Assembly (NCBI GenBank): GCA_023247445.1
Contig: JAHFGL010000003.1
Location: 78,128-142,127, forward strand
Direction of reading: 5' to 3'
Source: Candidatus Omnitrophota bacterium
GTDB lineage: Bacteria > Omnitrophota > Gorgyraeia > Zapsychrales > Zapsychraceae
DNA: 64,000 bases
Part shown: positions 6,539-58,580 of the stretch, in pieces
Numbering within the stretch: the stretch's first letter is position 1
Layout of the letters: the number at the start of each line of letters is the position of its first letter
Translations under genes and position numbers: made by a program
The notes under the pieces: model-generated
Database searches by the model: none
Told to the model about the DNA's origin: nothing
What the model saw: the letters and a program-made list of their open reading frames with translations, nothing else

Positions 6539-6582
6539 AAAAGTTATTGTTTATCAATCGTCCTCGTTTAGAATAGGGTTAT

Positions 6583-18433: not shown

Positions 18434-19203
18434 TTCACATTTCTCATCTATATAAATCTTTTGCTAGAGATTCTGTTCTTACCGATTTTAATTTAACCGT
18501 TAAGGCCGGTGAGACGAAGGTTATCATTGGCCGTTCCGGGGCGGGAAAAAGTGTGCTGCTCAAATGTATTATGGGATTAGTTCGACCGGATTCAGGATCA
18601 ATTAAGATTAATGGGGTTGAAGTCACGGATATTGCAGAGAAAGAATACAATAAAATCCGTATGGATATTGGTTTGCTTTTTCAAGGCGGAGCGCTTTTTG
18701 ATTCGATGAGTGTGGCGGACAATGTGGCTTTTGTTCTTAACGAATTTAAGAATCTGGACAAAAAAACAGTTCAAAAGAAAGTTGAAGAAGCCTTGGCTTT
18801 AGTCGGGTTGCAGGGGGTTGAGGATTTAAATCCGTCACAATTAAGCGGGGGGATGAAAAAGCGTGTTAGTTTAGCACGCATCCTTTGCATGGAGCCGCAA
18901 ATGATTTTTTATGATGAACCCACCAGTGAAGTCGACCCCATCATGGCGGATGCGATTAATAATTTAATCATCGATTTGCGCAATAAACTCAAAGTGACGT
19001 CGATTGTGGTGACTCATGATATGAACTCAGCTTTTAAGGTCGCTGACTCGATTGCAATGGTTTATCATGGCCAGGTGATTGCCGAAGGCACACCTGATGA
19101 GATTCGGCACACCAAACACCCGGTTGTAAAACAATTTATTTACGGGGAGGCGCATGGCCCCATTACTGATGATGAAAATCTAATTTTTGGGCATGTGAAA
19201 TAA
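18430..19203 (+). CDS. mlaF: Phospholipid ABC transporter ATP-binding protein MlaF.
   Basis: 257 aa ABC ATPase with GRSGAGKS, LSGGMKKR and IFYDEPTS. Confidence 0.8.
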   Translation: MIHISHLYKSFARDSVLTDFNLTVKAGETKVIIGRSGAGKSVLLKCIMGLVRPDSGSIKINGVEVTDIAEKEYNKIRMDIGLLFQGGALFDSMSVADNVAFVLNEFKNLDKKTVQKKVEEALALVGLQGVEDLNPSQLSGGMKKRVSLARILCMEPQMIFYDEPTSEVDPIMADAINNLIIDLRNKLKVTSIVVTHDMNSAFKVADSIAMVYHGQVIAEGTPDEIRHTKHPVVKQFIYGEAHGPITDDENLIFGHVK

Positions 19204-19217
19204 CAGAAAGGGACGAT

Positions 19218-19928
19218 ATGTCGAAGGAATCAAGGTTAGAATTTAAAGTCGGACTTTTTGTCTTGGCGGCAATGATTGGTTTAGCCTTTTTTATTTTCTC
19301 CGTGAATGATTCCTCCATTTTTGCCAAAGGTAAGAAATTAAAATTCATATTTCAATTTGCCGATGGCCTAAAGGAAAGTGCACCGGTGCGTATCGCTGGC
19401 GTCGATGAAGGGGTTGTCACGGATATTCATCTTTTCTTTGACCGACAAGATCGAAAAACAAAAGCGGAAGTCCAAGTTAAGATTCAGAAAGACACACAAA
19501 TTCCTTCGGATTCAGTTGTGCTGATTAATCAGTTGGGGTTGCTTGGCGAAAAATATATTGAGATTGTTCCCGGCGTTGAGACAAAAACATTTTTTGAAAA
19601 TGGACAGGTTATTGTTGGAAAGGATCCGATTTCGCAGAACGCTATTTCTGAGAAGATTATGGGAGCAGCGAACAAGTTTGATCAAACGATGAGCGGGTTA
19701 AGTAAAATTATGAGTGATGAGAAAAATATCGAATCGGTTAGCCAGACGCTTCAGGGGTTGGGCATGATTTCAAGTAACCTGGCACGTGTTTCCGAAAATA
19801 TTAAAGAAGGTAAAGGAACGATCGGTCGCCTTTTCTATGACGAACGTCTCTATGATGACCTGCAAGGCTTAGCTTCCGAGTTAAAAGCCAACCCTTGGAA
19901 ACTTCTCTATCGACCAAAAGATCGTTAA
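19218..19928 (+). CDS. mlaD: MCE-domain periplasmic substrate-binding protein MlaD.
   Basis: 236 aa with an N-terminal TM anchor followed by an MCE domain. Confidence 0.75.
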   Translation: MSKESRLEFKVGLFVLAAMIGLAFFIFSVNDSSIFAKGKKLKFIFQFADGLKESAPVRIAGVDEGVVTDIHLFFDRQDRKTKAEVQVKIQKDTQIPSDSVVLINQLGLLGEKYIEIVPGVETKTFFENGQVIVGKDPISQNAISEKIMGAANKFDQTMSGLSKIMSDEKNIESVSQTLQGLGMISSNLARVSENIKEGKGTIGRLFYDERLYDDLQGLASELKANPWKLLYRPKDR

Positions 19929-19957
19929 TTATTACCAAAGGAAATTATTCTAAGGTA

Positions 19958-20001
19958 TTTACACTACAAAAGTCGCCATGTGGCGACTTTTGTAGTGTAA
20001 A
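19958..20001. terminator. Perfect 21-bp-stem palindrome downstream of mlaD.
   Basis: TTTACACTACAAAAGTCGCCA-TG-TGGCGACTTTTGTAGTGTAAA. No T-run follows, so Rho-independent function is uncertain. It overlaps the left copy of a direct repeat. Confidence 0.5.
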
Positions 20002-20020
20002 TGAGCAAGGATCCTTCGTA
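19975..20020. repeat. Direct repeat, left copy (CGCCATGTGG...TTTGTAGTGTAAATGAGCAAGGATCCTTCGTA).
   Basis: Matches 20829-20889 with small indels. Together the two copies flank the 20060-20722 ORF. Confidence 0.75.
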
Positions 20021-20059
20021 AAATTATGTGTTTCAAGATTGTGAGAAAGGCTCTTTAAT

Positions 20060-20722
20060 ATGAATACAATTGAATTGGTAGTTTGGATATCTGTTATTGC
20101 AGCAATAGGTGTGACAATTCTTGTTTTTTATTTAAAAAAACTTGACCTAGATTTAAAGAGTAACATTGTAATAATTCTTGGGGTGGGTGCTTATTTTTAT
20201 TTTTTTCATGGATCTTTTGATTCACGCCATCTTTTAACATCTTTGATTAAATACCTTATTGTTTTTTTATTATGTATTTGGTTATTATATGACATGACAT
20301 GCAATGCTAATGGAGATAGAAAACTAAAGAAAATATTGAAGGTGATAAACTCTTCCAAAGATAAGAATATTATTAATGCGCTTAAAGAATTCTTTGTAAA
20401 AGATACGGAGATAGAGCTATTAAATTTTTATATCGAAGAAAAGGCAGACTGGTTGATCCAAGTTTCTAAAGGGAAGGACGTTGGGAATTTTGACTTTACC
20501 ACAACATTTCATTCAAGGGATTTGACCAAAGATCAAATAAATAGATTATCCCTATTGAGTTGGGAACCTTTTTGTGATGAAGAGTTAGAAGGATTTGAAT
20601 GCTCTTTAGAAATTTTTAAGGATGATTTGGCTAGCTTGACCAAAGCATCAGAATTGATTTATAAAACTTTTGAGATAGTCACATTTTCTTCAAATCAAAA
20701 GATTATGGTGAATTTTGGATAG
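20060..20722 (+). CDS. Hypothetical membrane protein (N-terminal TM helices plus a cytoplasmic domain).
   Basis: 220 aa, AT-rich, no recognisable motif. It is flanked by ~50-60 bp direct repeats. Confidence 0.45.
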   Translation: MNTIELVVWISVIAAIGVTILVFYLKKLDLDLKSNIVIILGVGAYFYFFHGSFDSRHLLTSLIKYLIVFLLCIWLLYDMTCNANGDRKLKKILKVINSSKDKNIINALKEFFVKDTEIELLNFYIEEKADWLIQVSKGKDVGNFDFTTTFHSRDLTKDQINRLSLLSWEPFCDEELEGFECSLEIFKDDLASLTKASELIYKTFEIVTFSSNQKIMVNFG

Positions 20723-20828
20723 AATTTCAAACGTGGCTTAAAAACAATATTTAGTTGATTTACAACCAGGTAAATTAGAAAACGTCACAAAATAGCAAAG
20801 AAATCTTGGGACATTAGAATTCGGGTTT

Positions 20829-20889
20829 CGCCATGTGTTGGAAATTTTTTATTGTAGTGTAAATACCTGATGAGCAAGGATTCTTCGTA
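20829..20889. repeat. Direct repeat, right copy (CGCCATGTG...TTGTAGTGTAAATacctgaTGAGCAAGGATTCTTCGTA).
   Basis: Right-hand partner of 19975-20020. Confidence 0.75.
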
Positions 20890-21003
20890 GAATGGGTTAT
20901 AGGATGACAATGGCAAAAATTGCCATAGCCTTTAATCTGACTTTTCTGCAGTAATCTTAATTTTGGTCTTGACTTTTCTGCAGCCTAATACATACTTATA
21001 AAT

Positions 21004-22125
21004 ATGAAACGCCTCCTTGAAGCAAAAATTAAACTAGATTTAGACCAAAAAATTGTTCTTTTAAGTGGTCCCCGCCAAGTAGGAAAGACAACCCTTGCCA
21101 AGGCACTTTATCCAGACACAGCAGAATATTTTAATATGGACAATGAGGCGCATCGTCTTCTTATCAAAAAGCAGGCTTGGCGCCGTGATTGTGATTTGGT
21201 CATTTTTGATGAATTGCATAAAATCAAAAAATGGAAAAGTTGGATTAAGGGGATCTATGATACGGAAGGCGTTAGACCACGTCTTCTGGTCACTGGGTCT
21301 TCACGGCTAGATACCTTTCGCAAAGGTGGCGATTCGCTTGCCGGGCGATTTTATCATTTTCGGCTTCATCCTTTTTCTGTAGCCGAGATCAAAGGCAATG
21401 ATTCTTCAGATAATATCCTAGAAAAGATTATGAGGGTCGGTGGGTTTCCTGAACCATTTCTAAAAGATAGCGAAGAAGCCGCCAAGCGTTGGCGCCGTTC
21501 GCATATCGATCGTATTTTACATGAAGATATTTTTGATGTTTCATCGCTTCGGGATATCCGCGGCCTCGAAACGTTGGTGGAATTATTACGTAATTGCGTC
21601 GGGAGTACCGTATCCTTTGAATCATTGTCCCGAGACCTGCAAGTTTCTCCACACACGGTTAAGCAATGGGTTAGTATTCTAGAAAGCCTTTATATTCTTT
21701 TTGTCGTAACACCCTATTCACGTAATATCGCCAGAAGTCTTTTAAAACAACCAAAAATTTATTTCTACGATACAGGTTTTGTCAAAGAAGATGAGGGGGC
21801 AAGATTTGAGAATACGGTAGCGTGTTCTCTTTTGAAACGACTCCATTTTTTAGAAGATACTAAAGGTGAGAAATGCGCACTCCATTATTTACGCGACAAA
21901 GAAAAAAAAGAAGTGGATTTTTTAACGGTGCGTGACGGCCAGCCGGAATGGTTAATTGAAGCTAAAATTTCCGATCAAAATACGTCTACGCTTAATCATT
22001 TTGCTAGCTTTTTACCTAAGAAAACGGAGCCAATCCTTCTTGTGAAAAATCTTAATCGGGAACTTTTTTTAAATGGGGTCAAGGTCAAAAGAGCTGCTCA
22101 ATGGTTACAAAATCTGGAAGCCTAA
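21004..22125 (+). CDS. AAA+ superfamily ATPase with a C-terminal DUF4143-type domain (COG1373-like).
   Basis: 373 aa with Walker A GPRQVGKTT and Walker B VIFDELH. This ATPase + DUF4143 architecture is widespread. Confidence 0.65.
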   Translation: MKRLLEAKIKLDLDQKIVLLSGPRQVGKTTLAKALYPDTAEYFNMDNEAHRLLIKKQAWRRDCDLVIFDELHKIKKWKSWIKGIYDTEGVRPRLLVTGSSRLDTFRKGGDSLAGRFYHFRLHPFSVAEIKGNDSSDNILEKIMRVGGFPEPFLKDSEEAAKRWRRSHIDRILHEDIFDVSSLRDIRGLETLVELLRNCVGSTVSFESLSRDLQVSPHTVKQWVSILESLYILFVVTPYSRNIARSLLKQPKIYFYDTGFVKEDEGARFENTVACSLLKRLHFLEDTKGEKCALHYLRDKEKKEVDFLTVRDGQPEWLIEAKISDQNTSTLNHFASFLPKKTEPILLVKNLNRELFLNGVKVKRAAQWLQNLEA

Positions 22126-22484
22126 TTTTCAATTGCCACAACGCAGGGGCTGCTTGTGTCGAATATCTAAAAAAGTGTGTGTCTCTTTTAACGAGAAATC
22201 AAATAATGCGTTCCAATATTCCAATTCAGCGAGATTATGCGTCTAAATGGTGGGTATCGTCTATTAACTATATATTTGTATTTATTTTCTTCGTTGTTTC
22301 TGCCCTTTTACATTTTTCTGAGGGATTTTTGGTAGCTTTTTTTTTATTCTTTATTTTTGCTATGGAAAATATAGTTATTATTGCAATTCAGATTTTTCAA
22401 AGAAAGTTTCTATATGCAATTTTGAACACAATGCTCTTCATTCTTATTGCAGGAACTCTACTAAGAATTATGATGGAACAATAA
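22101..22484 (+). CDS. Hypothetical small membrane protein.
   Basis: 127-aa ORF. The likely true start is the internal Met at ~22206 (MRSNIPIQ...). It has 3 predicted TM helices. Confidence 0.3.
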   Translation: MVTKSGSLIFNCHNAGAACVEYLKKCVSLLTRNQIMRSNIPIQRDYASKWWVSSINYIFVFIFFVVSALLHFSEGFLVAFFLFFIFAMENIVIIAIQIFQRKFLYAILNTMLFILIAGTLLRIMMEQ

Positions 22485-22702
22485 TCCTAGGAGATGACAT
22501 CAAAACATTTAAAGCCTGTGACTGAGGTATAAACGAATGCAATGTTTAATTTAAAGAATACACTGAATGATATAGAATTTTTAAAAAAATTTTATTTTCG
22601 AGGATGGAGAAGACAAATGGATAAAATATTGTAGATGAGAATTAGTAGGGGTAGAACACGCCATCATGAAGTTAAAATTGTAATTAATCCCAAGAGAAGG
22701 GT

Positions 22703-23149
22703 ATGAACTATATTATCTACATAGTAAAAAGTGTTCTCCTAGCAATTTTATGTGCAGTCTTTACATTCGTGGCCTTTGCCTGTCTTTGGTACGTGGCGTC
22801 AAACCCAAATTCCTTTTTTATATTTGGTATTGTTTTATTAGTCACCTTGGCGGCAATAATGTATACAATTGATTCCTTGCGCAGATCAGTCATAAAAGAT
22901 ACAGGGAGATCAAAGGCTTTTAATTATGCCTGCATCGGTATATTAATTGGAATTGTTATTGCCATTATTAAATGGAAATGGGACCTTTCTAAATACTTTC
23001 AGGCAAGGGGAACGCAAGAAACTTACGGTGCTGATATTGTTGAACTATTAATGTCGATTGTCTTTTTTTCTGTCTTAGGATTTATTGGCGGCTTATTTAT
23101 TGGATTAATACGAGTAAAAAGATATAAAAATATTCCGAAATTGCCATGA
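22703..23149 (+). CDS. Hypothetical membrane protein (4 TM).
   Basis: 148 aa, hydrophobic. It overlaps the start of the next gene by 4 bp, which suggests an operon. Confidence 0.4.
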   Translation: MNYIIYIVKSVLLAILCAVFTFVAFACLWYVASNPNSFFIFGIVLLVTLAAIMYTIDSLRRSVIKDTGRSKAFNYACIGILIGIVIAIIKWKWDLSKYFQARGTQETYGADIVELLMSIVFFSVLGFIGGLFIGLIRVKRYKNIPKLP

Positions 23150-25014
23150 AGTTAAAAGCGTGTTTAAAAAGGTTTCTTGCCAGCGATTGGGTTGTTGTTG
23201 CCGGTTTAACGTTTATTTTCTTTTTAACCCACGGGTATCGATTTGCCTGGGATGACCATCCCATGGAAATTCCCCTTCTTAAAAGCCTCATCGACCACGA
23301 GCTATTTACCCGTGATTATTTCGTTACCAGCACCAAACAATATCTCTTAACCTATTTTTTTATTATCTTGTCGAAATTAATAACCATTAAGCAGATTGAG
23401 TTGGTGTATTTCATTTTATTTTGGGTGTCGCGCTATTTTATGTTTTTCTGGATGTATAAATTGTGGTTACTCATCTCAAAAAATAAATTAACAAGTTTCT
23501 GCTGCGTCTTAAGTTTTGAAGTGTTGGTGCGGTATCAGCTATTTCTTTATCTTACGTTTTCGGAATCAGAATGGACCTTTGCCTTTATTTTTGCCGGTTT
23601 TTACTATTTCTTTAAAGAAAGGTATCTTCTGGCGTCGATCATTTTGGGTGTTGCGGCAAATTTTCATGCCTTATTTGCGGCTTTCCCGATGATGTATGTA
23701 CTGGCTTATTTGATGTTCAAGGTAAAAGACTTAGGATGGAAGCCATTGGTCAATTCATTGTTGGCCTTTTTGATTTGCGCATCGCCAGTTTTAATTTGGT
23801 TTGTGAAAAAGATTCTTTTTCCACCGGCACTTGCTCCCGAGTTGCAATCAATGGATTGGATACAGCTTTATAAGGAACACTGCGAGTATATGTTTCGTTA
23901 TGGCACCGCTGCTCTTAGCCAAACTTTTCCTAACTCAGGGGCTTTTATTAAGAACGAGGCTGTTCATTTCGATATTTTTGTTATTTCTTTATTGTTTTTT
24001 AATCTTTGTCATAACCCCACATTCCGTAAAGAAACAAAAACGATGACAATCTTTTTTGTTGGAATGACGTTAATGATTTTTGATGTGCTGTGTGCTTATT
24101 TTTTCCCCAACGAACTTAGTATGACGATACAGTTCCGTCGGCATGAACCGTATCTTATAATTTTCTTGATTGGCTATACGACACTAGCGCTACGAACGAT
24201 TTCTTTGAAAGAAACCGTTTGGACATCCGCATTTCTGGGGATTATGTATTATCATCTGGGCAACAAGGATTTATTAAGCGCATCGATGTTATTGGCGGCG
24301 ACGTGTTTATTATTTGTGACACGAAGTAAATCCTATAACAAGATTCCTCAACTAGTAATATCTATTTTGGGTGTTATTGGTGTTTTTGTTTCTTTAAAGC
24401 TTTATGTGTATCAATTGCACCTGATGGGGATCAATCCTTTTCGAGAGATGTTTTTTAAGATTGTTTTAACAGTTTTCGGTGTTTCTTCATTAAGCACGTT
24501 AATTTTTCGTAACCCGAAATATCATGGCCAAATAAAGGCGTTATTTATTATTGTTCCGTTAAGCATATTCGTCTTCGGCTATACGCAGCGACATATTCAA
24601 GAAGTAAAGAAACCTAAATCATCCATTGATATTGTGCGGGACGATTTTAAAGAAATGGCCCTATATGCCAAGGATCACACGCCGAAGAGTGCGCTATTTT
24701 TGATTCCCTATGATTTGTCTTATGACAATTTTAGAGTTTTCTCTGAGCGCAATGTTCTCTATAACGATCAAGACATCGCTATTTTTCCCTATGACAAGAA
24801 TTTTATTTTAGAACGAAAGAAGAAGTTATCTTATATCGGTGATTTTAAAATTAGAGCAGAGCGCCCCGTCAATGACGCGGTTAAGAATGCCATTTTGGTT
24901 TATCATGTCGACTATATTGTTTTCCCATCTTACAACATGCCGCCAAGTTCAGCGATATTAGAACGCATTCATACAACATCGCTTTTGGGGCTATATAAAG
25001 TCAATTATCTGTGA
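23146..25014 (+). CDS. Large polytopic membrane protein, possibly a GT-C-type glycosyl- or lipid-modifying enzyme.
   Basis: 622 aa with >10 predicted TM helices and a C-terminal soluble region. No diagnostic motif is recognisable. Confidence 0.4.
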   Translation: MKLKACLKRFLASDWVVVAGLTFIFFLTHGYRFAWDDHPMEIPLLKSLIDHELFTRDYFVTSTKQYLLTYFFIILSKLITIKQIELVYFILFWVSRYFMFFWMYKLWLLISKNKLTSFCCVLSFEVLVRYQLFLYLTFSESEWTFAFIFAGFYYFFKERYLLASIILGVAANFHALFAAFPMMYVLAYLMFKVKDLGWKPLVNSLLAFLICASPVLIWFVKKILFPPALAPELQSMDWIQLYKEHCEYMFRYGTAALSQTFPNSGAFIKNEAVHFDIFVISLLFFNLCHNPTFRKETKTMTIFFVGMTLMIFDVLCAYFFPNELSMTIQFRRHEPYLIIFLIGYTTLALRTISLKETVWTSAFLGIMYYHLGNKDLLSASMLLAATCLLFVTRSKSYNKIPQLVISILGVIGVFVSLKLYVYQLHLMGINPFREMFFKIVLTVFGVSSLSTLIFRNPKYHGQIKALFIIVPLSIFVFGYTQRHIQEVKKPKSSIDIVRDDFKEMALYAKDHTPKSALFLIPYDLSYDNFRVFSERNVLYNDQDIAIFPYDKNFILERKKKLSYIGDFKIRAERPVNDAVKNAILVYHVDYIVFPSYNMPPSSAILERIHTTSLLGLYKVNYL

Positions 25015-25069
25015 GCAAAATTCGTGGTGTTCACGATAGAACCATTGTATTATTGGATAAAAATAAATA
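24886..25069. repeat. 184-bp direct repeat, copy 1 (3' end of the 622-aa gene plus ~55 bp downstream).
   Basis: Near-identical to 28026-28209, with about 6 mismatches. Confidence 0.9.
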
Positions 25070-25188
25070 ACATCAAGGCGATATAATTTTCGATATGTGT
25101 TTTGGAATTATGTGGCCGTATTAGGAACGAGAGGATTAAGCCTTCCCACTATCAAACGTAAAGTTCATGAGATTCTTAAGAAGGAAAT

Positions 25189-25512
25189 ATGAGAGTAATG
25201 AAGAAGACCTTGCTTGTTAATATAATGATTCTTCTTAGCTATGTGACTTTGTTAGGCCTTGGCTATGGATTTTATACTAGGGGTTTTCCTCCTCGTGGCG
25301 AAAATTATGCTTCATTAGGCACGGCCCTTTTAACTGTGCTTCTTATTTTTGTACATTTATTTTGCAATTTAGTTTTGTCGTTTATCTTTTTTTATCTTAA
25401 GGATAAAGAGAAGGGAAAGGCTTATCTATTGAGCATTGCGGTGATTGCCATCATAGGTGTCCCAGCTTGTTTTGGTGGAACTTTTTTGACAGATTGGATT
25501 CAACGATTTTGA
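25189..25512 (+). CDS. Small membrane protein, paralog A.
   Basis: 107 aa with 3 TM helices. Paralogous to 25553-25846 (similar N-terminus KTLLVNIMILLSYVTLL and C-terminal CFGG/CFAG motif). Confidence 0.45.
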   Translation: MRVMKKTLLVNIMILLSYVTLLGLGYGFYTRGFPPRGENYASLGTALLTVLLIFVHLFCNLVLSFIFFYLKDKEKGKAYLLSIAVIAIIGVPACFGGTFLTDWIQRF

Positions 25513-25552
25513 TTACCCAATTTTCGATAATTTATTAGTAAGGAGATAAAAG

Positions 25553-25846
25553 ATGACCTTAACTAGAAAAATACTATGGGTGAATGTGATCATACTTTTT
25601 GCATACTTAACCTTGCTAAATATGGCCCTTAAAGCAGAAGGAAATAAGGCGGGACTTGGCTTTTTAATATTAGCAGCTTTTTCACTTGGATTGCATTTAG
25701 TGATTAACCTTATAATTGCAATTATAATGTTTTGTCGAGGGAAAGAAGATATCGGAAGAGCTTTTTTGTTCACTCTTCCTCTTATTTTAGTCATTGGTTT
25801 TCCCATGTGTTTTGCCGGTGTTGGGTTGCTTGATAATATACATTAA
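25553..25846 (+). CDS. Small membrane protein, paralog B.
   Basis: 97 aa. Tandem paralog of 25189-25512. Confidence 0.45.
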   Translation: MTLTRKILWVNVIILFAYLTLLNMALKAEGNKAGLGFLILAAFSLGLHLVINLIIAIIMFCRGKEDIGRAFLFTLPLILVIGFPMCFAGVGLLDNIH

Positions 25847-25851
25847 ATATC

Positions 25852-26595
25852 ATGTTTCCAATAAATATAACATTAGGGAAAGTAATTATTAATTCCCATT
25901 TGCTTTTTGAAATATTGGCTTATACGTTAGGTTTTCGTTATTTTTTGTACCTACGAAAAAAAGCGATTGATAGAGTATCAGAATCTAATCGCATCTGGAT
26001 TCTAATAGGTGCTGGATTTGGTGCGGTGATTGGGTCAAGATTATTGGGTTTCTTTAGCACACTAATCTCGGGTTTAAATGTATCCCAAGCTGTTTTATTG
26101 TTTTTTAGCAGTAAATCTATTGTCGGCGGACTTTTGGGAGGGTTGATTGGCGTTGAAATCACCAAGAAATTTTTAAATATAAAATTTTCAACAGGGGATC
26201 TTTTGACATATCCCATTATATTAGCCATGATCATTGGGCGTGTGGGGTGTTTCTTGCAAGGTGTTCATGATGGGACTCATGGTACGGCCTCAACTTTGCC
26301 ATGGGCTATCGATATGGGAGATGGAATCCTTCGGCATCCCACGTCATTATATGAAGTTATTTTTCTAGCTGCTCTATGGGTTGTTTTACGGAAAATTGAC
26401 CACCGCTTAATTGAAGGCGCAAGATTTAAATTATTTATAACAGCTTATCTAGTATTTCGATTCTTTATTGAGTTTATTAAGCCAGTTTATATCTATCCAG
26501 TGGGGATATCCGCTATTCAGATTGTTTGTCTGGCTGGTCTGATCTATTATTGGAAAGTACTATTGTTTTCTCAAAGTTTGTTTAAACAAATCTAA
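25852..26595 (+). CDS. lgt: Prolipoprotein diacylglyceryl transferase (Lgt family).
   Basis: 247 aa. Lgt signature regions are present: GGLLGGLIGV, GRVGCFLQG (cf. GRLGNFINGE), RHPTSLYE (cf. HPSQLYE) and FRFFIEFIKP. Confidence 0.7.
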   Translation: MFPINITLGKVIINSHLLFEILAYTLGFRYFLYLRKKAIDRVSESNRIWILIGAGFGAVIGSRLLGFFSTLISGLNVSQAVLLFFSSKSIVGGLLGGLIGVEITKKFLNIKFSTGDLLTYPIILAMIIGRVGCFLQGVHDGTHGTASTLPWAIDMGDGILRHPTSLYEVIFLAALWVVLRKIDHRLIEGARFKLFITAYLVFRFFIEFIKPVYIYPVGISAIQIVCLAGLIYYWKVLLFSQSLFKQI

Positions 26596-26606
26596 AAAGT
26601 GAGACA

Positions 26607-28013
26607 TTGATGGCCGACCGCAATTATTTATTTTACGATTTTACCACAAGCATCTGTTCACAATGTTTACGCAAAGTAGAGGCCAAGGTTATTTTTCAAG
26701 ATGAGAAAGTTTATTTACTTAAAAATTGTTTGATTCATGGAAAAGAGAAAGTATTAATCGCGACTGACATTGAATATTATAAGATGACGCGTAATTATTT
26801 AAAGCCTCCAAGCATGCCGCTTAAGTTTAATACCACGACACAATTTGGTTGTCCTTATGATTGCGGTTTGTGCCCCGATCATGAGCAGCATTCTTGTTTA
26901 ACGGTCATTGAAATTACCGATCGATGCAATTTGACATGCCCAACCTGTTACGCTGAATCAAGCCCTACGCATGGACGGCATCGAACGGTCGAAGAGATTG
27001 AACAGATGTTTGATATTATTGTCGCTAATGAGGGCGAACCGGATGTTGTTCAGATTAGCGGGGGCGAACCGACACTGCATCCCGATTTTTTTAAGATTCT
27101 TGATATTGCCAAAACAAAACCATTCCGGCATTTGATGATTAACACTAATGGTATTCGTATCGCTAAGGATGAAACTTTTGTCCGGCAGTTAGCGTCTTAC
27201 ATGCCGGGATTTGAAGTCTACTTACAGTTTGATTCCTTTGAGAAAGAGACACTTCAAAAGCTAAGAGGTGAAGATTTAAGAGATGTTCGGGAGCGTGCTC
27301 TTAATAATTTGAATAAATATAATCTTTCAACCACTTTAGTTGTTACCTTGCAAAAAGGATTAAATGATCATGAGATCGGCAAGATTATTCAGTTTGCCTT
27401 AAAGCAAAAATGTGTTCGCGGAGTAACATTGCAACCCACCCAAACGGCTGGCCGACTTGACAATTTCAATCCCGCAACTGATCGTCTTACCTTAACGGAA
27501 GTCCGTCAGGCCATCATTGATCAGAGCAATTTATTTACACCTGATGATTTGCTGCCCGTTCCTTGCAACTCTGATTGCTTGGCAATGGGATATGCGTTAA
27601 AAATTGCTGGACAGGTTATGCCACTTACGCGATTTATTAATCCCAAAGACTTATTAAATGATTCTAAAAATACGATTGTTTATGAGAAAGATCCCGACAT
27701 TCATCGCAAAATTATTAAAGTGTTTGATACGGGAAGGAGTGAGAATGAAATTCCGAAAAATTTGCAGTCACTCTTGTGTTGCTTGCCAAAGATTGTGGCC
27801 CCAAACCTTAATTATGATAATGTCTTTCGCGTGATCATTATGCAATTTTTAGATGCGTACAATTTTGACGTCCGCGCGGTCAAGAAATCTTGTGTCCACA
27901 TTGTCCATAAAGACGGCCGGATTATTCCTTTTGATACGATGAACTTATTTTATCGCGATGATAAAGAAGAATATTTAAAGCGTTTAAAGAATGAAACAGT
28001 TTTAACCAAATGA
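26607..28013 (+). CDS. Radical SAM enzyme with an N-terminal Cys-rich Zn-ribbon-like segment and two CX3CX2C motifs.
   Basis: 468 aa with CPYDCGLC and CNLTCPTCY, a glycine-rich SAM-binding stretch QISGGEPTL, and further C-terminal Cys residues. The architecture recalls the MJ0619 / Tes-like radical SAM family, but that assignment is unverified. Confidence 0.6.
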   Translation: MMADRNYLFYDFTTSICSQCLRKVEAKVIFQDEKVYLLKNCLIHGKEKVLIATDIEYYKMTRNYLKPPSMPLKFNTTTQFGCPYDCGLCPDHEQHSCLTVIEITDRCNLTCPTCYAESSPTHGRHRTVEEIEQMFDIIVANEGEPDVVQISGGEPTLHPDFFKILDIAKTKPFRHLMINTNGIRIAKDETFVRQLASYMPGFEVYLQFDSFEKETLQKLRGEDLRDVRERALNNLNKYNLSTTLVVTLQKGLNDHEIGKIIQFALKQKCVRGVTLQPTQTAGRLDNFNPATDRLTLTEVRQAIIDQSNLFTPDDLLPVPCNSDCLAMGYALKIAGQVMPLTRFINPKDLLNDSKNTIVYEKDPDIHRKIIKVFDTGRSENEIPKNLQSLLCCLPKIVAPNLNYDNVFRVIIMQFLDAYNFDVRAVKKSCVHIVHKDGRIIPFDTMNLFYRDDKEEYLKRLKNETVLTK

Positions 28014-28025
28014 AACAAGTCCATA

Positions 28026-28209
28026 AATGCCATTTTGGTTTATCATGTCGACTATATTGTTTTCCCATCTTACAACATGCCGCCAAGTTCAGCGATATTA
28101 GAACGCATTCATACAACATCGCTTTTGGGGCTATATAAAGTCAATTATCTGTAAGAAAAATCCGTGGCGTTCACGACAGAACCATTGTATTATTGGATAA
28201 AAATAAATA
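28026..28209. repeat. 184-bp direct repeat, copy 2 (noncoding relic of the 622-aa gene 3' end).
   Basis: Matches 24886-25069. It lies immediately after the radical SAM stop codon. Confidence 0.9.
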
Positions 28210-28337
28210 GCAATAATGGCATGGGTTGCGGTCTTTGGGAGTTGCTGGTAGGTAGGGATGATAATGGAGAGAATAGCAAAAGCTTTAGTAGCACAGGGAC
28301 TTATAAAATAGTATACTTTTTGCAAGGAGGATATTTT

Positions 28338-28523
28338 ATGACGGCAAAGCAAGAGGTTCGATCATTGCTTCAGAAGTTACCTAATAATTGTACGCTTGAG
28401 GATATTCAATATCATCTCTATGTTATTGAGAAAATTAATAGAGGCCTTGCGCGGATAAAAAAAGAAGGTGGTATTCCGCACAAAGAAGTTAAAAAACGGT
28501 TGGCTAAATGGATCGTAAAGTAA
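28338..28523 (+). CDS. Type II antitoxin (putative addiction-module component of the RelE/ParE system).
   Basis: 61 aa (MTAKQEVRSLLQKLPNNCTLEDIQYHLYV...) preceded by AAGGAGG. It overlaps the toxin start by 16 bp. The longer six-frame ORF from 28164 begins inside the repeat and is not credible. Confidence 0.6.
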   Translation: MTAKQEVRSLLQKLPNNCTLEDIQYHLYVIEKINRGLARIKKEGGIPHKEVKKRLAKWIVK

Positions 28524-28813
28524 AGTGGTCGCCTGAGGCCTTGGAAGATGTTGAGTCGATTGCGCAGTACATTGCCCGCGATTCGCAATTTTACGCCCGA
28601 TCTACGGTTTCTAAAATCCTCGATTTTTCAGACAGTATCGCCAAATTTCCACAAGTGGGTCGCATCGTCCAAGAATTTAATGATAAAACAATCAGAGAAC
28701 GGTTAGTTTATAGTTATCGTTTAGTGTACAAAATTGAACGTTTTCGCATCCTTGTTATTGCTGTTATCCACGATAAAAGGTTATTTAACTCTATATCAAA
28801 GCGATTTGAATAG
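28508..28813 (+). CDS. Type II toxin, RelE/ParE family.
   Basis: 101 aa (WSPEALEDVESIAQYIARDS...RLVYKIE...ILVIAVIH), the typical ParE/RelE fold signature. Confidence 0.7.
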   Translation: MDRKVKWSPEALEDVESIAQYIARDSQFYARSTVSKILDFSDSIAKFPQVGRIVQEFNDKTIRERLVYSYRLVYKIERFRILVIAVIHDKRLFNSISKRFE

Positions 28814-28941
28814 GACAACTTAAGAAGATTGTAGCAACATACTTTACGGGTAATTCGGGGACACAATACTCAATCCCCGAACTAATTAAGGAATCAAGTA
28901 ATGTGTCTCGGAATTTTTGTTGAATATTCTTGAATTGAAAA

Positions 28942-29424
28942 ATGGATCAAAAAGTTCTTAAATTCAGAAATCCAGATTTAAATTTTATTTCCTATGGAGG
29001 GATAGTGTGTTTTCTAGCTTCATTTCTATCGTTCCCATTTATTATCTTTGATCCATCAAAAAAAGATCTGCACTTAAATTTTACAGATTTTGTTGGCTTA
29101 GCATTTTTTGTCGGCCTGTTCTTCTTTGTATTAACTGTTGTGCCAGCTATCATTTTTCTGAATACATATTGGAAAGAGTTTATTTTTGATTCCAAGAAGA
29201 AAGTCATTACCATTGTGAAAAGAATATTCTTTTTTCGCGTTGGCAAAATCGAAGAAATCCCTTTTAGTTCTGCCTCGTTGGCATTGGAGCATAGATCCCT
29301 TGATGGGGGCCGAGTGTGGTATTTGATTTTAAATACGGGTTATAATCGATTTGATCTTTGCTTTAGTCTTTTTAAAGGCAGGATAGACAAACATAAGACA
29401 CGTTTAGAACAGATTTTAAAATAA
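28942..29424 (+). CDS. Hypothetical membrane protein.
   Basis: 160 aa with 2 TM helices and no recognisable motif. Confidence 0.35.
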   Translation: MDQKVLKFRNPDLNFISYGGIVCFLASFLSFPFIIFDPSKKDLHLNFTDFVGLAFFVGLFFFVLTVVPAIIFLNTYWKEFIFDSKKKVITIVKRIFFFRVGKIEEIPFSSASLALEHRSLDGGRVWYLILNTGYNRFDLCFSLFKGRIDKHKTRLEQILK

Positions 29425-29476
29425 AAAGACTTCTTAAAATTTATGACTGGCTGTTAACGAATGCTGATAAAGATTA

Positions 29477-30838
29477 ATGAAAACTAAAACGATATTTGTT
29501 TGTCAAAGCTGTGGGGCGCAGTCGCCGCGTTGGATTGGTAAATGTTCCAATTGCGACAGCTGGAATTCCTATGTTGAAGAAGCGATGTCTGGGCCTGTTG
29601 AAAGTAGAAAAGATATTGTCTTTAAAGACAGCCCAATTCTTTTGACTGATGTTTCGATTGAGCAAGAAAAAAGATATATCACAGAGATTAAGGAATTGGA
29701 TCGTGTCTTAGGCGGTGGGATTGTTCCCGGCTCAGTAACCTTAATCGGCGGCGATCCTGGCATCGGTAAATCAACATTGTCGCTACAAATTGCCTGTTCA
29801 TTGAGTCAGCAGGGGCATAAAGTTCTTTATATCAGTGGTGAAGAATCCGTTAAGCAAACGCGGATGCGATCGGAGCGTTTAAGCACTAAAGAAAATAAAT
29901 CGCTTTATATTGTGAATCAAGTCGATCTTAACGTGATCGCTGAATATATTAATACAATGAAGCCGACGGTTGTTGTCGTTGACTCCATTCAAGTTGTTTT
30001 TAGTGCAGAAATTTCGTCAACGCCAGGCAGTGTTAGTCAGGTTCGGGAATGCGCGGCCATCTTGACACATATGGCCAAGTCGATGGGGATGGCGCTTTTT
30101 ATTATTGGTCATGTCACTAAAGAAGGGATGTTGGCGGGTCCACGTGTTTTAGAACATATTGTCGATACGGTTTTGTATTTTGAAGGCGAACGGTATTCGA
30201 CTTTTCGTATTTTACGGGCGACTAAAAATCGTTTTGGATCAACTAATGAAATTGGTGTTTTTGAGATGACCTCCGGCGGTTTGGCGGAAGTGGCGAATCC
30301 TTCTGAAATATTTTTATCGGAACGACCAAAGAATGCATCGGGGTCGGTCGTGGTTCCCATTTTAGAAGGAACCAGGCCTTTTTTGGTTGAGATTCAAGGA
30401 TTGGTTAGCCGCAGCAGTTTCGGCATGGTTCGTCAAAAGGCGCAAGGTTTTGATCCTAATCGTTTGGCGATGCTCGTTGCTGTTTTAGAAAAACGGATGG
30501 GGCTTAATCTGCAGGATAAAGATATTTTCTTAAACGTTGTCGGCGGCGTTCGTGTGATGGATCCCGCGGCGGACTTGGCGGTTGCCATGGCGATTGCTTC
30601 GGCTTTGTTAGATAAATCCGTTAATTTTGATACCGTTATTTTAGGTGAAGTCGGTCTTTCATCAGAGGTCAGAAGTGTCAGCCAAATTGCTATCCGTATT
30701 AATGAAGCAGACAAGCTTGGATTTAAAAAATGTATTATCCCGAAAAATAATTTAAAAACAAAGATCGATGTCAAATCTAAGAAAATTGAGTTAATCCCGG
30801 TTGAAACTCTTCGTGAAGCTTTAAATATTTTAACCTAA
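29477..30838 (+). CDS. radA: DNA repair protein RadA/Sms.
   Basis: 453 aa with an N-terminal C4 zinc finger (CQSCGAQSPRWIGKCSNC), a RecA-like ATPase (GGDPGIGKST), KNRFG and a Lon-like C-terminal domain. Confidence 0.9.
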   Translation: MKTKTIFVCQSCGAQSPRWIGKCSNCDSWNSYVEEAMSGPVESRKDIVFKDSPILLTDVSIEQEKRYITEIKELDRVLGGGIVPGSVTLIGGDPGIGKSTLSLQIACSLSQQGHKVLYISGEESVKQTRMRSERLSTKENKSLYIVNQVDLNVIAEYINTMKPTVVVVDSIQVVFSAEISSTPGSVSQVRECAAILTHMAKSMGMALFIIGHVTKEGMLAGPRVLEHIVDTVLYFEGERYSTFRILRATKNRFGSTNEIGVFEMTSGGLAEVANPSEIFLSERPKNASGSVVVPILEGTRPFLVEIQGLVSRSSFGMVRQKAQGFDPNRLAMLVAVLEKRMGLNLQDKDIFLNVVGGVRVMDPAADLAVAMAIASALLDKSVNFDTVILGEVGLSSEVRSVSQIAIRINEADKLGFKKCIIPKNNLKTKIDVKSKKIELIPVETLREALNILT

Positions 30839-30852
30839 AGAATAGGAAAAAC

Positions 30853-31833
30853 ATGACGCTATTATTTATTCGTATCCTGTTTCTAGTTTTAAGTGCCGTC
30901 GTTGGTGAGTACATTGGCAGCCTTTTACAAAAACCAGTCTTAGGTGCGGGGGTCGGTCTTGCTAGCGGTGTCATTTTAATGACATTGGAACAGAGTCTAA
31001 GTCGTGTTTCCGTCCGTGGCTTATCGAGTATGGTTTTTGGACTCCTCTTGGGTGTTTTTATGGCGAAACTTATTTCAGATATCATTTCGCTATTACCATT
31101 GGGGGAATTTATAAATTCAATCACCAAAGTTATTTTGACACTAGTGTTTTCTTATTTGGGCGCAGTCATGGCGCTACGCGGTAAGGATGAGTTTAACGTG
31201 ATTATTCCCTATATTCGTTTTCGTCGGGAGGATGTTAAAGAGGGAGTGATCCTTTTGGATAGCAGCGCCATTATTGATGGGCGTATTATTGATATTTTTA
31301 AGATTAATTTTTTAATGGGACGACTGGTTGTTCCTCGTTTTGTTTTATTTGAACTACAAAATTTGGCCGATTCGGCCGATGACACCAAACGCCAGCGTGG
31401 CCGCCGAGGATTAGAATTATTACGAATGATGCAAGGGGATTTAAAAATGGATGTGCGCATTCAAGAAGAAGATATGTCGGGTGTTGATGAGGTGGATACG
31501 AAATTAATAAGGCTCGCTAAATTAATGGATGCCCGTTTATGCACGACCGATTTTAATCTGGGCCGCATTGCGACACTACAAGGCGTTGAGGTCTTAAATA
31601 TTCATGATCTTGTTAGTGCGGTTAAGTCCGTTGTCTTTACCGGTGAGAAACTAGACGTTAAATTAATTAAAGAAGGCAAAGAGCCAAATCAGGCGGTCGG
31701 TTATATGGAAGATGGAACAATGATTGTTGTCACTGATGCTAAATCTTTTCTTGGACAAAATGTTAAGGTTGCGGTGACCTCCGTTTTACAAACGCAGGCA
31801 GGCCGAATGATTTTCGGAAAGCTCGATCGATGA
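30853..31833 (+). CDS. yacL: PIN + TRAM domain membrane protein (YacL-like).
   Basis: 326 aa with N-terminal TM helices, a PIN domain and a C-terminal TRAM-like barrel. Its position after radA matches Bacillus yacL. Confidence 0.65.
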   Translation: MTLLFIRILFLVLSAVVGEYIGSLLQKPVLGAGVGLASGVILMTLEQSLSRVSVRGLSSMVFGLLLGVFMAKLISDIISLLPLGEFINSITKVILTLVFSYLGAVMALRGKDEFNVIIPYIRFRREDVKEGVILLDSSAIIDGRIIDIFKINFLMGRLVVPRFVLFELQNLADSADDTKRQRGRRGLELLRMMQGDLKMDVRIQEEDMSGVDEVDTKLIRLAKLMDARLCTTDFNLGRIATLQGVEVLNIHDLVSAVKSVVFTGEKLDVKLIKEGKEPNQAVGYMEDGTMIVVTDAKSFLGQNVKVAVTSVLQTQAGRMIFGKLDR

Positions 31834-39152: not shown

Positions 39153-39237
39153 AAGATAGAAAATAGAAGATGGAGGATGGATGAAGATGGATGGTAGAAT
39201 CGATGAGCTATCTTCTATCATCCATCTTCTATCTTCG
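39152..39237. repeat. GAAGATGGA-rich long imperfect hairpin element (copy 1).
   Basis: GAAGATAGAA...AGAAGATGGATGG // CCATCTTCT...TTCTATCTTC, immediately after the metG stop. Confidence 0.7.
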
Positions 39238-41273: not shown

Positions 41274-41276
41274 ATG

Positions 41277-41362
41277 AAGATAGAAGGGAGAAGATGGAAA
41301 ATGGATGAAGATGGAAAGTAGAATAAGATCATTCCACATTCTATTGTCCATCCTCTATTTTC
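41277..41362. repeat. GAAGATGGA-rich long imperfect hairpin element (copy 2).
   Basis: GAAGATAGAAGGGAGAAGATGGAAAATGGATGAAGATGGAAAGTAGAAT // ATTCTATTGTCCATCCTCTATTTTCCC, immediately after the thiL stop. Confidence 0.7.
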
Positions 41363-58500: not shown

Positions 58501-58580
58501 CTGCACTGACTTCTCTAATAAAGATATTTATTGTAGTCAGTACTGCCCCAACTTTTTCTTTATGCTTGGGGAAACTTTAA

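Follow-up and report, generated by a model that had tools for sequence, protein, structure and literature searches.

The locus analyzed here raises the question of how the end of one gene came to stand twice on the same DNA, with four genes between the two copies, and whether these four genes constitute a mobile unit. All positions refer to the window, that is, the whole 64-kb stretch of DNA that was analyzed. The original prediction described a 184-bp repeat of ~97% identity whose second copy covers 28026-28209. This was essentially right: we measured two direct copies of 187 nt each, at 24886-25072 (copy A) and 28026-28212 (copy B), with a start-to-start spacing of 3140 nt and 181 of 187 positions identical (96.8%). 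The self-comparison of the window that had been proposed along with the prediction revealed no other repeat longer than 100 nt, and the 56-nt core of the repeat occurs exactly twice in the window and in none of 100 shuffles. Both ends of the repeat are sharp, since the flanks outside the two copies resemble each other no more than shuffled sequence does. The features of the locus are as follows.

17645-29476, + strand: lineage-specific block of 11.8 kb between two conserved backbone genes, a 324-aa gene and radA
23146-25014, + strand: 622-aa polytopic membrane protein, Pfam DUF6798, predicted GT-C fold; last 42 codons inside copy A
24886-25072, + strand: repeat copy A, the working gene end (codons 581-622, TGA stop, 58-nt trailer)
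25073-25188, + strand: leader of 116 nt between copy A and the first cassette gene
25189-25512, + strand: small membrane protein sm107 with the C-terminal motif ...IGVPAC-FGG; paralog of sm97
25553-25846, + strand: small membrane protein sm97, tandem paralog of sm107, with the motif ...IGFPMC-FAG
25852-26595, + strand: Lgt-family paralog of 247 aa (Pfam LGT, E 2.8e-21, 76.4 bits)
26607-28013, + strand: Tes/GDGT-MAS-like radical SAM enzyme of 468 aa with an N-terminal zinc ribbon
28026-28212, + strand: repeat copy B, the displaced non-coding relic of the GT-C gene end, in which TAA replaces TGA
28338-28813, + strand: putative antitoxin and ParE-family toxin, directly after the relic
28338-28523, + strand: presumed antitoxin of 61 aa, without a family match, overlapping the toxin ORF
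28508-28813, + strand: ParE-family toxin (Pfam ParE_toxin, E 6e-15)

Copy A comprises the last 126 coding nucleotides of the 622-aa open reading frame, its stop codon, and the trailer. Copy B lies ~3.1 kb downstream of the gene end, separated from copy A by 2,953 nt. It has no gene body upstream, begins 12 nt past the stop codon of the radical SAM gene, and carries TAA at the stop position, so that its description as a noncoding relic was borne out. A tblastn search with the 622-aa protein found no fragment of the gene in the window besides copy B. The six mismatches (25013, 25016, 25022, 25028, 25037, and 25070 in copy A coordinates) all fall within the last 60 nt, from the stop codon on, and none within the preceding 127 nt (hypergeometric p = 0.0009), which form the longest exact run between the copies. 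The trailers differ by ~10%, and the 42 codons show no synonymous difference. Such an uneven distribution (p about 0.001) argues against a simple duplication followed by neutral decay and fits either one recombination event between two alleles of the gene end or a leftover from a second copy of the gene. A neutrally decaying relic would carry about 5-6 changes in its formerly coding part; two alleles that remained under selection until the event fit better.

The gene that carries copy A was examined with an AlphaFold model of its product (pLDDT 94.1). The best 15 Foldseek matches in the PDB were all GT-C enzymes (probability 0.99-1.00), with ArnT (5EZM) as the first match (E 2.4e-4, probability 1.0) and modest TM-scores of 0.24-0.44. 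The first loop contains a conserved WDD motif, with D36-D37 kept at 90% or more. With a modeled GT-C membrane fold and an acidic motif in the first extracytoplasmic loop, the protein is a predicted glycosyltransferase. The 42 residues encoded in copy A correspond to a C-terminal block that is conserved in the family: Y586 is invariant, and Y590, V592, F593, and Y596 are among the positions kept at 90% or more. In the model, this block makes up three strands of the C-terminal domain. The best relatives in the databases searched are at most 36% identical; in these relatives the gene comes after a GT2 gene, and those examined carry genes other than the lipid module downstream.

The predicted gene content between and behind the copies was recovered in full: two paralogous small membrane proteins, a protein with a Pfam LGT domain, a radical SAM protein, and then a ParE toxin ORF. 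The two small proteins are 34% identical (E 5e-17). The leader in front of them (25073-25188) showed no similarity to the sequence after copy B and contained no convincing promoter or terminator on the + strand. The name lgt given to the third gene proved correct at the level of the Pfam family and wrong for the housekeeping enzyme, a candidate identity that we rejected: the best score against the NCBIfam equivalogs was 37.9 bits (NF000778) with a cut-off of 334, and two residues of the housekeeping enzyme, N146 and H103, are replaced. In alignments with E. coli Lgt, for which Y26, H103, R143, N146, E151, G154, R239, and E243 are reported to be required, the paralog keeps R143, R239, and E243 as well as Y235, H196, and the RHP..LYE motif. 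N146 (E. coli numbering) is Cys in all five module-linked Lgt-like members aligned, in which H103 is replaced by V/L/I and E151 by V/M/T; the Y26 and G154 regions align ambiguously. A head insertion of ~23 residues in E. coli Lgt is missing from the paralog. Because its scores fall far below the equivalog cut-offs, the cassette protein is, as judged from its sequence, a divergent and dedicated paralog rather than the housekeeping enzyme.

The radical SAM protein matched Pfam Radical_SAM (96.7 bits) and Zn_ribbon_HMPTM (60.2 bits), contains CNLTCPTC at residues 107-114 (CxxxCxxC), and aligned over nearly its full length (residues 13-456) with GDGT-MAS (PDB 7TOL; E 7e-64). These features place it in the Tes/HMPTM-like branch of the superfamily. 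Membership of the Tes or TrsS families was rejected, because the scores (337.6 for TrsS, NF045646, and 282 for Tes, NF045702) lie below the curated cut-offs of 490 and 450, respectively; the protein is a homologue only. Family lengths range from 464 to 477 aa. Identities are 66-82% to proteins of Bacteroidota, Sericytochromatia, Neobacillus, and others (66-73% in other phyla), and the closest relatives reach 80-82%, far above the ≤36% of the nearest relative of the GT-C gene.

Across bacteria, the Lgt-like gene lies directly upstream of the radical SAM gene in 150 of 167 loci, and a member of the small-protein family adjoins this pair in 116 of the 167, with two to three tandem copies in 39 loci. 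The small proteins are therefore a third, widely conserved component of the module and not a local oddity. The module occurs in unlike neighborhoods, for instance in an LPS-core cluster (locus L090), behind a GNAT-domain gene (locus L006), and elsewhere in Bacteroidota. The cargo is thus a conserved unit found in unrelated neighborhoods of other bacteria. Taken together, the data support the view that the DNA between the copies holds a complete envelope-lipid-type module, consisting of two small Cys-tailed membrane proteins, an Lgt-family paralog, and a Tes-like radical SAM enzyme. This module, which is uncharacterised, is a more interesting part of the locus than the repeat.

The surroundings of the cassette are variable. 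Besides the GT-C gene, the cassette, and the relic, the block contains MlaEFD, a 220-aa ORF, a DUF4143/PDC-S01 ATPase (21004-22125; match to the PADLOC candidate defence family PDC-S01, E 6.6e-58), 127-aa and 148-aa ORFs, the toxin-antitoxin ORFs, and a 160-aa ORF. The pair at 28338-28813 has the make-up of a type II ParE/RelE toxin-antitoxin system, its antitoxin being presumed. In L092, a collinear relative from the Omnitrophota, only 10 nt separate the orthologue of the 324-aa gene from that of radA, and the whole 11.8 kb is absent. Seventeen flanking genes are collinear there (40-87% amino-acid identity), and the 21 kb of L092 examined contain no orthologues of the block genes, MlaF matching only a paralogous ABC ATPase. 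Another relative with an 88% identical RadA has yet other genes upstream of radA. The GC content is 0.35-0.37 across 19929-29476 and 0.405-0.418 in the backbone. Because the collinear relative lacks the entire block, the repeat sits within a lineage-specific stretch, where it is a real but ordinary scar of recombination.

Does this make the cassette a mobile module, as originally predicted? The envelope-lipid-type cargo was substantiated, and the original interpretation gains some support because the cargo is conserved in unrelated neighborhoods and the 11.8 kb are missing from the collinear relative. The mobility itself was not substantiated. Pfam searches of the cassette, the block genes, and nearly all ORFs of at least 120-130 aa in 1-54641 found no integrase, transposase, or other recombinase. 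No IS or transposase genes lie at the locus, and the duplicated stretch measures 187 nt where a composite transposon or IS insertion would leave a short target duplication, so that the locus does not resemble either. Folding and inverted-repeat searches revealed no structured att or recombination site in the repeat; the only inverted pair in 22000-31000 (29 nt, 76% match) is at chance level. Contig searches found no circular form, empty site, or donor arrangement: an exact 35-mer of the repeat was absent from JGI metagenome contigs, and an exact look-up of the ParE protein returned the integrated arrangement only. The module was absent from viral contigs, and its plasmid carriage is confined to two non-mobilisable Bacteroidota records of 163 kb and 1.07 Mb. 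Thus, the module shows no sign of self-mobility, and "mobile module" remains unproven for want of a recombinase, a structured att site, a circular form, an empty site, or carriage by phages or mobile plasmids.

The repeat is best read, with about half of our confidence, as the scar of one homologous-recombination event that set a ready-made lipid module behind the intact GT-C gene. The original prediction of a recombination origin, by single crossover or by a partly deleted duplication, likewise remains the best reading. The incoming DNA would have brought the module and, next to it, a slightly divergent allele of the final ~130 nt of the GT-C gene with its trailer, and recombination would have taken place inside the identical coding stretch. 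Two routes are conceivable: either a circularised fragment integrated by a single, Campbell-type crossover, or homology anchored one side of the insertion while the other end was joined illegitimately. Either way, a complete gene end (copy A) would stand before the module, and the end of the other allele (copy B) would be stranded behind it, running into the toxin-antitoxin genes. The copies duplicate exactly the gene part that is needed to keep the gene whole, as a crossover inside the gene end produces. Further arguments for this reading are the completeness and the high conservation of the cargo, the other genes that follow the GT-C gene in its examined relatives, the location in the variable block, and the recurrence of the junctions in independent assemblies. 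Copy B would have no function of its own, and the only consequence of the pair would be a possible loss of the module by recombination between the copies. Lacking mobility genes, the module would be a passenger in the accessory-type block. How and in which direction the recombination proceeded, and which of the copies was the resident one, we infer from a single genome, because the searches yielded neither an empty site nor a circular junction or a donor arrangement. Among the points against this reading, the GC content and codon usage of the cassette do not depart from those of the neighboring GT-C gene and thus provide no independent sign of a separate arrival. Moreover, functional alleles with ~10% divergence in the trailer should show ~3 synonymous differences in 42 codons, and none was seen (roughly p 0.05), so that a later gene conversion between the copies may have to be invoked.

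The strongest competitor, which we consider possible but only about half as probable, starts from an ancestor with the order GT-C gene, module, GT-C gene, in which a deletion of the first 1.74 kb of the downstream copy left its last 129 nt and the trailer. Two once-functional copies would explain the unchanged coding part next to a diverged trailer, and tandem duplication is active in the module itself, as the repeated small proteins show. In the closest relative with available DNA (L006; radical SAM protein 80% identical, same gene order), the module is even bracketed by two copies of another large gene, the pattern expected from this history and hence a point against the single-event reading. 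There, the bracketing copies derive from the 5' region of a large GNAT-domain gene and are 91.7% identical over at least 444 nt. However, at least two events would be needed: first a duplication around the module, then a deletion with its endpoint 12 nt behind the stop codon of the radical SAM gene. Furthermore, nothing else of a second copy has survived, a second copy of the co-transcribed 148-aa gene is likewise missing, and the lack of synonymous differences next to a trailer divergence of ~10% fits this history poorly.

Direct repeats of a gene's 3' end that flank an insert and leave the gene intact are the classic footprint of site-specific integrative elements. The copies might accordingly be attL and attR of such an element at the 3' end of the GT-C gene, now a cis-mobilisable remnant dependent on an integrase from elsewhere. 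The anatomy matches, the locus lies in a variable block, and direct repeats of the target gene end do flank the cassette, but at 187 nt they far exceed the usual core sites in length, and plain homologous recombination would be expected to produce them just as well. The missing integrase and recombinase genes, a cargo of four biosynthetic genes only, and a long repeat devoid of notable secondary structure or inverted cores render this explanation improbable. In addition, among 151 module loci a long bracketing repeat was present only in the window and in L006, and the two derive from different genes.

Still less probable is a function of copy B, either as a C-terminal extension of the radical SAM enzyme by TGA read-through or recoding or as a duplicated 3' UTR or regulatory element. 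In favor of such a function, copy B continues the reading frame of the radical SAM ORF and has no stop codon ahead of its own TAA, its formerly coding 127 nt are free of changes in contrast to the trailer, and the related TrsS family includes selenoproteins. The shared frame, however, has a chance of one in three, and the radical SAM protein is complete as it stands: its length lies within the family range, and the homologues with a visible stop codon (from E. coli, the window, L090, and L094) all end at the same place. TGA is an ordinary stop here, as the GT-C gene ends with it at the normal length of its family. Folding of 28014-28230 as DNA revealed no significant structure (z = -0.57 versus shuffles), and no promoter or terminator signal on the coding strand exceeded the background.

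An assembly artefact, i.e. a chimeric or duplicated join from co-occurring strains, is the least credible explanation. In its favor, the source is a metagenome-assembled genome, and L089, an ENA contig obtained from a different sample, already ends at 28010 (16 nt short of copy B) and shows a mismatch at 28007. However, L089 agrees with the window at 99.955% over 23533-28010 and thereby spans copy A together with the full cassette. Both copies are also traversed, at identical gene spacing, by an ENA contig of 15.7 kb and by the source contig of 149 kb, so that more than one assembly shows the arrangement. Moreover, the copies differ at six positions, and their longest exact run is shorter than the k = 141 given in the ENA contig names (L089, L002), which means that they are kept apart in a de Bruijn graph.

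Among known systems, the scars of Campbell-type integration and of homology-facilitated illegitimate recombination are alike in their long repeats of host sequence, in an incoming gene end that keeps the gene whole, and in their reversibility by recombination; here, the mechanism is read from the anatomy and the mismatch pattern alone. Integrative elements, genomic islands, and cis-mobilisable elements at gene 3' ends share the gene-end repeats, the relic on the far side, and the variable region. The present locus differs in having neither an integrase nor a short core site, with 187 nt of plain homology and 3 kb of exclusively biosynthetic cargo instead. Integron cassettes resemble it in being compact and promoter-poor, with hardly any non-coding DNA (here, 12 nt follow the last stop codon), but there is no integron integrase, no attC-like folded palindrome, and no inverted repeat of at least 25 nt at the cassette ends, and the cassette holds four genes rather than one. 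The predicted glycosyltransferase is similar to ArnT and other GT-C enzymes in its modeled fold and the acidic motif of the first loop, and its position after a GT2 gene in relatives recalls polyprenyl-phosphate-sugar pathways; the TM-scores in this comparison are only 0.35-0.44, and no solved structure matched at the sequence level. E. coli Lgt (b2828) belongs to the same Pfam family as the cassette paralog and shares the conserved positions listed above, yet the two are only 21-27% identical and differ at N146, H103, and the head insertion. With the tetraether synthase Tes/GDGT-MAS and the bacterial synthases of membrane-spanning lipids, the cassette enzyme has the zinc ribbon, the CxxxCxxC motif, and a Cys-rich auxiliary motif in common as a full-length homologue. 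Unlike Tes, the cassette enzyme has an Lgt-family protein and small Cys-tailed membrane proteins as its partners.

The repeat under study is the sole repeat longer than 100 nt within the 64 kb window. It is a direct repeat of 187 nt, the copies of which lie 3140 nt apart (start to start) and agree at 181 positions (96.8%). The features concerned are as follows:

24886–25072: copy A, the 3' end of a 622-aa ORF (23146–25014), with its final 42 codons, its TGA stop and a 58-nt trailer
25073–28025: segment between the copies, with a 116-nt leader, two small membrane proteins, an Lgt-family protein and a radical SAM (rSAM) enzyme
28026–28212: copy B, in which TAA replaces TGA; it has no preceding gene body and starts 12 nt past the TGA of the radical SAM ORF (26607–28013)

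The original prediction of a gene end repeated directly behind the radical SAM gene was correct in all essentials. Copy B indeed lacks a preceding gene body, and the predicted cargo of two paralogous small membrane proteins, an lgt-family gene and a radical SAM gene is present between the copies. The window has two occurrences of a 56-nt core of the repeat, and 100 dinucleotide-preserving shuffles gave none. Both ends of the repeat are abrupt, as the 116–186 nt outside each end resembled one another no more than shuffled sequence did.

The 622-aa protein belongs to Pfam family DUF6798, for which a literature search found no paper. Its AlphaFold model, built with 67 homologues, reached a pLDDT of 94.1. 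The 15 best PDB matches of the model were all GT-C glycosyltransferases, headed by ArnT (5EZM; E = 2.4e-4, probability 1.0), with TM-scores of only 0.24–0.44, and the WDD motif in the first loop of the protein is conserved. No relative above 36% identity was found among 5.8 billion proteins. In the distant relatives, a GT2 gene precedes the GT-C gene and other genes come next. The 42 residues encoded in the repeat represent the conserved C-terminal block of the family and form three strands of the C-terminal domain in the model. Thus, the duplicated piece is exactly what keeps the GT-C gene whole.

All six mismatches between the copies (25013, 25016, 25022, 25028, 25037 and 25070) fall within the last 60 positions, from the second base of the stop codon on, and the preceding 127 nt are identical (clustering p = 0.0009). 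At the ~10% divergence of the trailer, approximately 5–6 changes would be expected in the ex-coding part of copy B if it had decayed neutrally after duplication within the genome, and none was observed. By this estimate, the chance of such a result under neutral decay of an in-genome duplicate is very small (about 0.001). A better fit is that the copies are the ends of two versions of the gene, each of which was under selection until recently; these could be alleles brought together by recombination, or paralogs. Alternatively, the long identical stretch could have been homogenised since then by gene conversion. If two functional alleles are assumed, one would still expect about three synonymous differences (p about 0.05 for none), so that some later conversion may be involved.

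The explanation we favour, with roughly an even chance of being right, is that one recombination event in the end of the GT-C gene placed the module behind this gene and left the gene intact. In one form of the event, a circularised fragment with the module and ~190 nt of homologous gene end would have integrated by a single crossover; in the other, an insertion would have been anchored by homology, and its far end would have undergone illegitimate joining at the start of the resident gene end. On this view, copy A would serve as the working end, and copy B would be stranded and continue into the toxin–antitoxin genes. The repeat itself would have no function of its own, its only effect being that the module could be deleted through recombination between the copies. 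The interpretation put forward initially is partly supported, and other origins keep some weight. Foremost among these is a second gene copy, that is, a gene–module–gene arrangement from which most of the second copy was lost. We consider this unlikely, though still the most serious competitor. It gains from the closest relative with DNA available (L006, rSAM 80% identical), in which a direct repeat of at least 444 nt with 91.7% identity (43–486 and 6265–6708) brackets the module together with a 1192-aa GNAT-domain gene. That repeat stems from the 5' region of this different large gene; its last 130 nt are identical, it runs into the contig end, and its right copy consists of a hairpin and of the 5' part of this large gene, which is present there a second time. 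In our window, a search for homology past the repeat ends or for further relic fragments within the block around the cassette found none.

A site-specific element served by a trans-acting integrase is very unlikely. Among the scanned window ORFs (nearly all of at least 120–130 aa, 1–54641), none carried an integrase or transposase domain, and DNA folding of the repeat gave no significant fold indicative of a structured site. Slightly less probable still is a functional copy B, acting through read-through of an in-frame TGA or as a regulatory element. The TGA of the rSAM gene is in frame with the relic (28011–28154), and read-through would add 46 residues up to the TAA of the relic. However, the shared frame is most likely a coincidence (one-in-three chance), the rSAM protein already has its full length when the extension is left out, this genome uses TGA as a normal stop, and the coding strand of the repeat, which lacks a significant fold, showed no promoter or terminator signal above background. 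Rfam and tRNA scans of the repeat region returned nothing.

An assembly duplication artefact, which the original prediction had allowed for, is probably not the origin of the repeat, and we give it the lowest rating of all: besides the six differences, the longest exact run between the copies is 127 nt and thus shorter than k = 141 (k as given in the contig names of L089 and L002, which were retrieved from ENA as DNA), so the copies are separable in the assembly graph. Two further contigs are in line with the arrangement. A 15.7 kb ENA contig (sample ERZ27296333) has the same gene spacing across both copies, and L089, from another sample (ERZ27280176), corresponds to window positions 23533–28010 at 99.955% identity, with mismatches at 28007 (synonymous) and 27680, and, starting in the 622-aa gene, covers copy A and the whole cassette. 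L089 ends at 28010, 16 nt short of copy B. A break induced by the repeat would fall elsewhere, so the repeat does not explain this end; the cause may be low coverage, or else a difference between strains directly behind the rSAM stop. The repeat is a fresh example of a well-known type of scar and is not surprising.

RadA placed the organism in the Omnitrophota, with best relatives at 77–88% identity. Since the 622-aa protein has only distant relatives, the empty-site comparison proposed originally was made on the conserved backbone instead: 17 genes of the window recur in the same order, at 40–87% identity, on a 395-kb contig of an Omnitrophota relative (L092). The order of genes is as follows:

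Left of the block, collinear: MacB-like, ABC, aminotransferase IV, McsA, McsB, ClpC, 324-aa gene
17645–29476, block: MlaEFD, 220-aa ORF, DUF4143 ATPase, two small ORFs, GT-C gene, cassette, relic, ParE toxin ORF with presumed antitoxin, 160-aa ORF
Right of the block, collinear: RadA, PIN-TRAM, IspD, IspF, hexapeptide transferase, CysS, Tmk, HolB, PSP1, MetG, IF-2B

In L092 (9990–10001), a gap of 10 nt separates the orthologue of the 324-aa gene from radA, and all 11.8 kb of 17645–29476 are missing. Thus, this block is lineage-specific. The relative with 88% RadA identity carries yet other small genes 5' of radA. Taken together, the two relatives make the site upstream of radA look like a variable hotspot. 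The block has the look of an accessory or defence-type island, as its AAA_14/DUF4143 ATPase (21004–22125) gave a match to PDC-S01, a candidate defence family of PADLOC (E = 6.6e-58), and it includes the ParE toxin ORF with its presumed antitoxin. The GC content is 0.35–0.37 over 19929–29476 versus 0.405–0.418 in the backbone. Only this whole stretch is richer in A+T; the cassette alone is compositionally indistinguishable from the adjacent GT-C gene. Directly 3' of mlaD, where the GC content shifts from a backbone-like 0.41 to AT-richer, lies a 46-nt near-perfect palindrome (19957–20002), which is probably a terminator hairpin and could mark an old junction. The order mcsA-mcsB-clpC ... radA-(PIN-TRAM)-ispD-ispF-(hexapeptide transferase)-cysS (12683–35172) is common to the two Omnitrophota genomes compared here, and is similar to the conserved clpC-radA-ispDF-cysES arrangement of Firmicutes. 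The repeat itself only documents the gain (or rearrangement) of a gene set in one Omnitrophota lineage at a variable spot between clpC and radA, and is useful for MAG annotation and as a marker of strain variation.

Elsewhere in the window, an 86-nt direct repeat (53021–53106 and 54295–54380; 92%) with internal dyad symmetry lies within two neighbouring minus-strand genes, for 2-oxoacid dehydrogenase E3 and E2, and could be shared coding sequence, not a mobile repeat. Purine-rich GAAGATGGA-type repeats occupy two intergenic spacers, after metG and before tsaE (39138–39200 and 41276–41324). The window also contains a tRNA-Leu(CAG) on the minus strand, a 48-nt stretch 83% similar to it, 125 nt off and uncalled as tRNA by ARAGORN, a tmRNA gene and a c-di-GMP-I riboswitch (jointly at 58456–58503, 58581–58663, 60238–60665 and 62668–62754).

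The module evidently relocates over evolutionary time, since it occurs in different contexts and is highly conserved beside a poorly conserved neighbour. Nothing shows autonomous or ongoing mobility. The module was absent from viral contigs, and its only two plasmid records are both non-mobilisable and from Bacteroidota (163 kb and 1.07 Mb). A 35-mer of the repeat had 0 exact matches in JGI metagenome contigs, and an exact ParE look-up returned only the integrated form, so that neither search yielded circular or empty-site contigs; a second metagenome scan with the rSAM protein gave only relatives of at most 74% identity. Among 151 loci, long bracketing repeats were present only in this window and in L006 (444 nt), derived from different genes, and short ones in L050 (45 nt) and L058 (56 nt); bracketing is not general to the module. 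For the mobile envelope-lipid modification module proposed originally as a candidate, a conserved unit in different contexts was found, but neither a recombinase nor viral carriage nor circular or empty-site contigs came to light.

The two small membrane proteins of the cassette are paralogs (34% identity, E = 5e-17). The rSAM enzyme has 468 aa and an N-terminal zinc ribbon. Over its full length it is homologous to the tetraether synthase GDGT-MAS (7TOL, E = 7e-64), and it stays below the curated cut-offs for Tes (282 vs 450) and TrsS (337.6 vs 490). Score, protein length and ordinary TGA use speak against TrsS selenoprotein membership and against TGA read-through. The window protein is 78–82% identical to a few metagenomic proteins and 66–73% identical to proteins from Flavobacteriaceae, Sphingobacteriaceae, Chitinophagaceae, Sericytochromatia, a Pseudomonadota MAG and Neobacillus. 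An Lgt-like gene lies directly 5' of the rSAM gene in 150 of the 167 rSAM loci fetched. Homologues of the small proteins, detected with a profile iterated from the two window paralogs, occurred in 116 loci (one copy in 77, two in tandem in 37, three in 2), and 157 of the 161 hits were located immediately after the rSAM gene or immediately before the Lgt-like gene. By position and recurrence, the small membrane proteins are thus the third regular component of the module, and all three components are tightly linked in these 116 loci across several phyla. Nearly every small-protein hit (160/161) has a Cys 4–19 residues (median 5) from the C-terminus, within the motif Y-L-I-I-[GS]-[LF]-G-[IVT]-C-G, preceded by a Lys-rich loop and a hydrophobic helix. 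In the closest relative with gene context, a 200-kb metagenome contig (L090, 1–21428; rSAM 81% identical), the small-protein/Lgt-like/rSAM unit sits inside a lipid A/LPS-core cluster (WaaA, LpxK, LpxL-like, GT4, three GT9, KdsB, KdsA, KdsD, KdsC, LptC/A, LptB), which hints that the module acts on an outer-membrane lipid or the LPS pathway. In L006 the module follows the large GNAT-domain gene, and in Bacteroidota it is found in yet other places. No paper on the pairing of Lgt-like and rSAM proteins turned up in a literature search, and this family is not dealt with in the papers on TrsS and Tes. PGAP names in the single annotated record examined (L094) were generic.

Conservation and gene linkage suggest, as a rather doubtful proposal, an undescribed three-component lipidation system, widespread in Bacteroidota and also present in other phyla. 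The small membrane proteins, in 1–3 tandem copies, would be the precursors. Their C-terminal Cys would receive a diacylglyceryl (or related) lipid through the dedicated Lgt paralog (N146C), after which the Tes-like rSAM enzyme would modify the lipid tails or cross-link them. The product would be a lipopeptide or lipid–protein conjugate anchored in the membrane. In this genome, the 187-nt repeat would render the system switchable through recombinational loss. The wider value of the cargo is that of a testable candidate for envelope-lipid or lipoprotein modification, a candidacy based on the module travelling as a unit and being able to be dropped next to an ArnT-like enzyme.

As judged by score and alignment, the 247-aa protein predicted as "lgt" is not the housekeeping enzyme but a dedicated Lgt-family paralog: it scored 37.9 bits against an equivalog cut-off of 334, and a phmmer search against solved structures gave no match. 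Compared with E. coli Lgt, it keeps R143, R239, E243, Y235 and the RHP..LYE motif, but has Cys at N146, V/L/I at H103 and V/M/T at E151 and lacks an insertion of ~23 residues; R143, R239, E243, N146, H103 and E151 belong to the residues reported as critical in the E. coli enzyme. The same pattern was found in four other module-linked members. The small proteins, in turn, resemble a lipoprotein signal peptide with its lipobox in their last helix and the near-invariant [GS]-[LF]-G-[IVT]-C-G, but only 4–19 residues follow the Cys, so that the mature part is almost absent.
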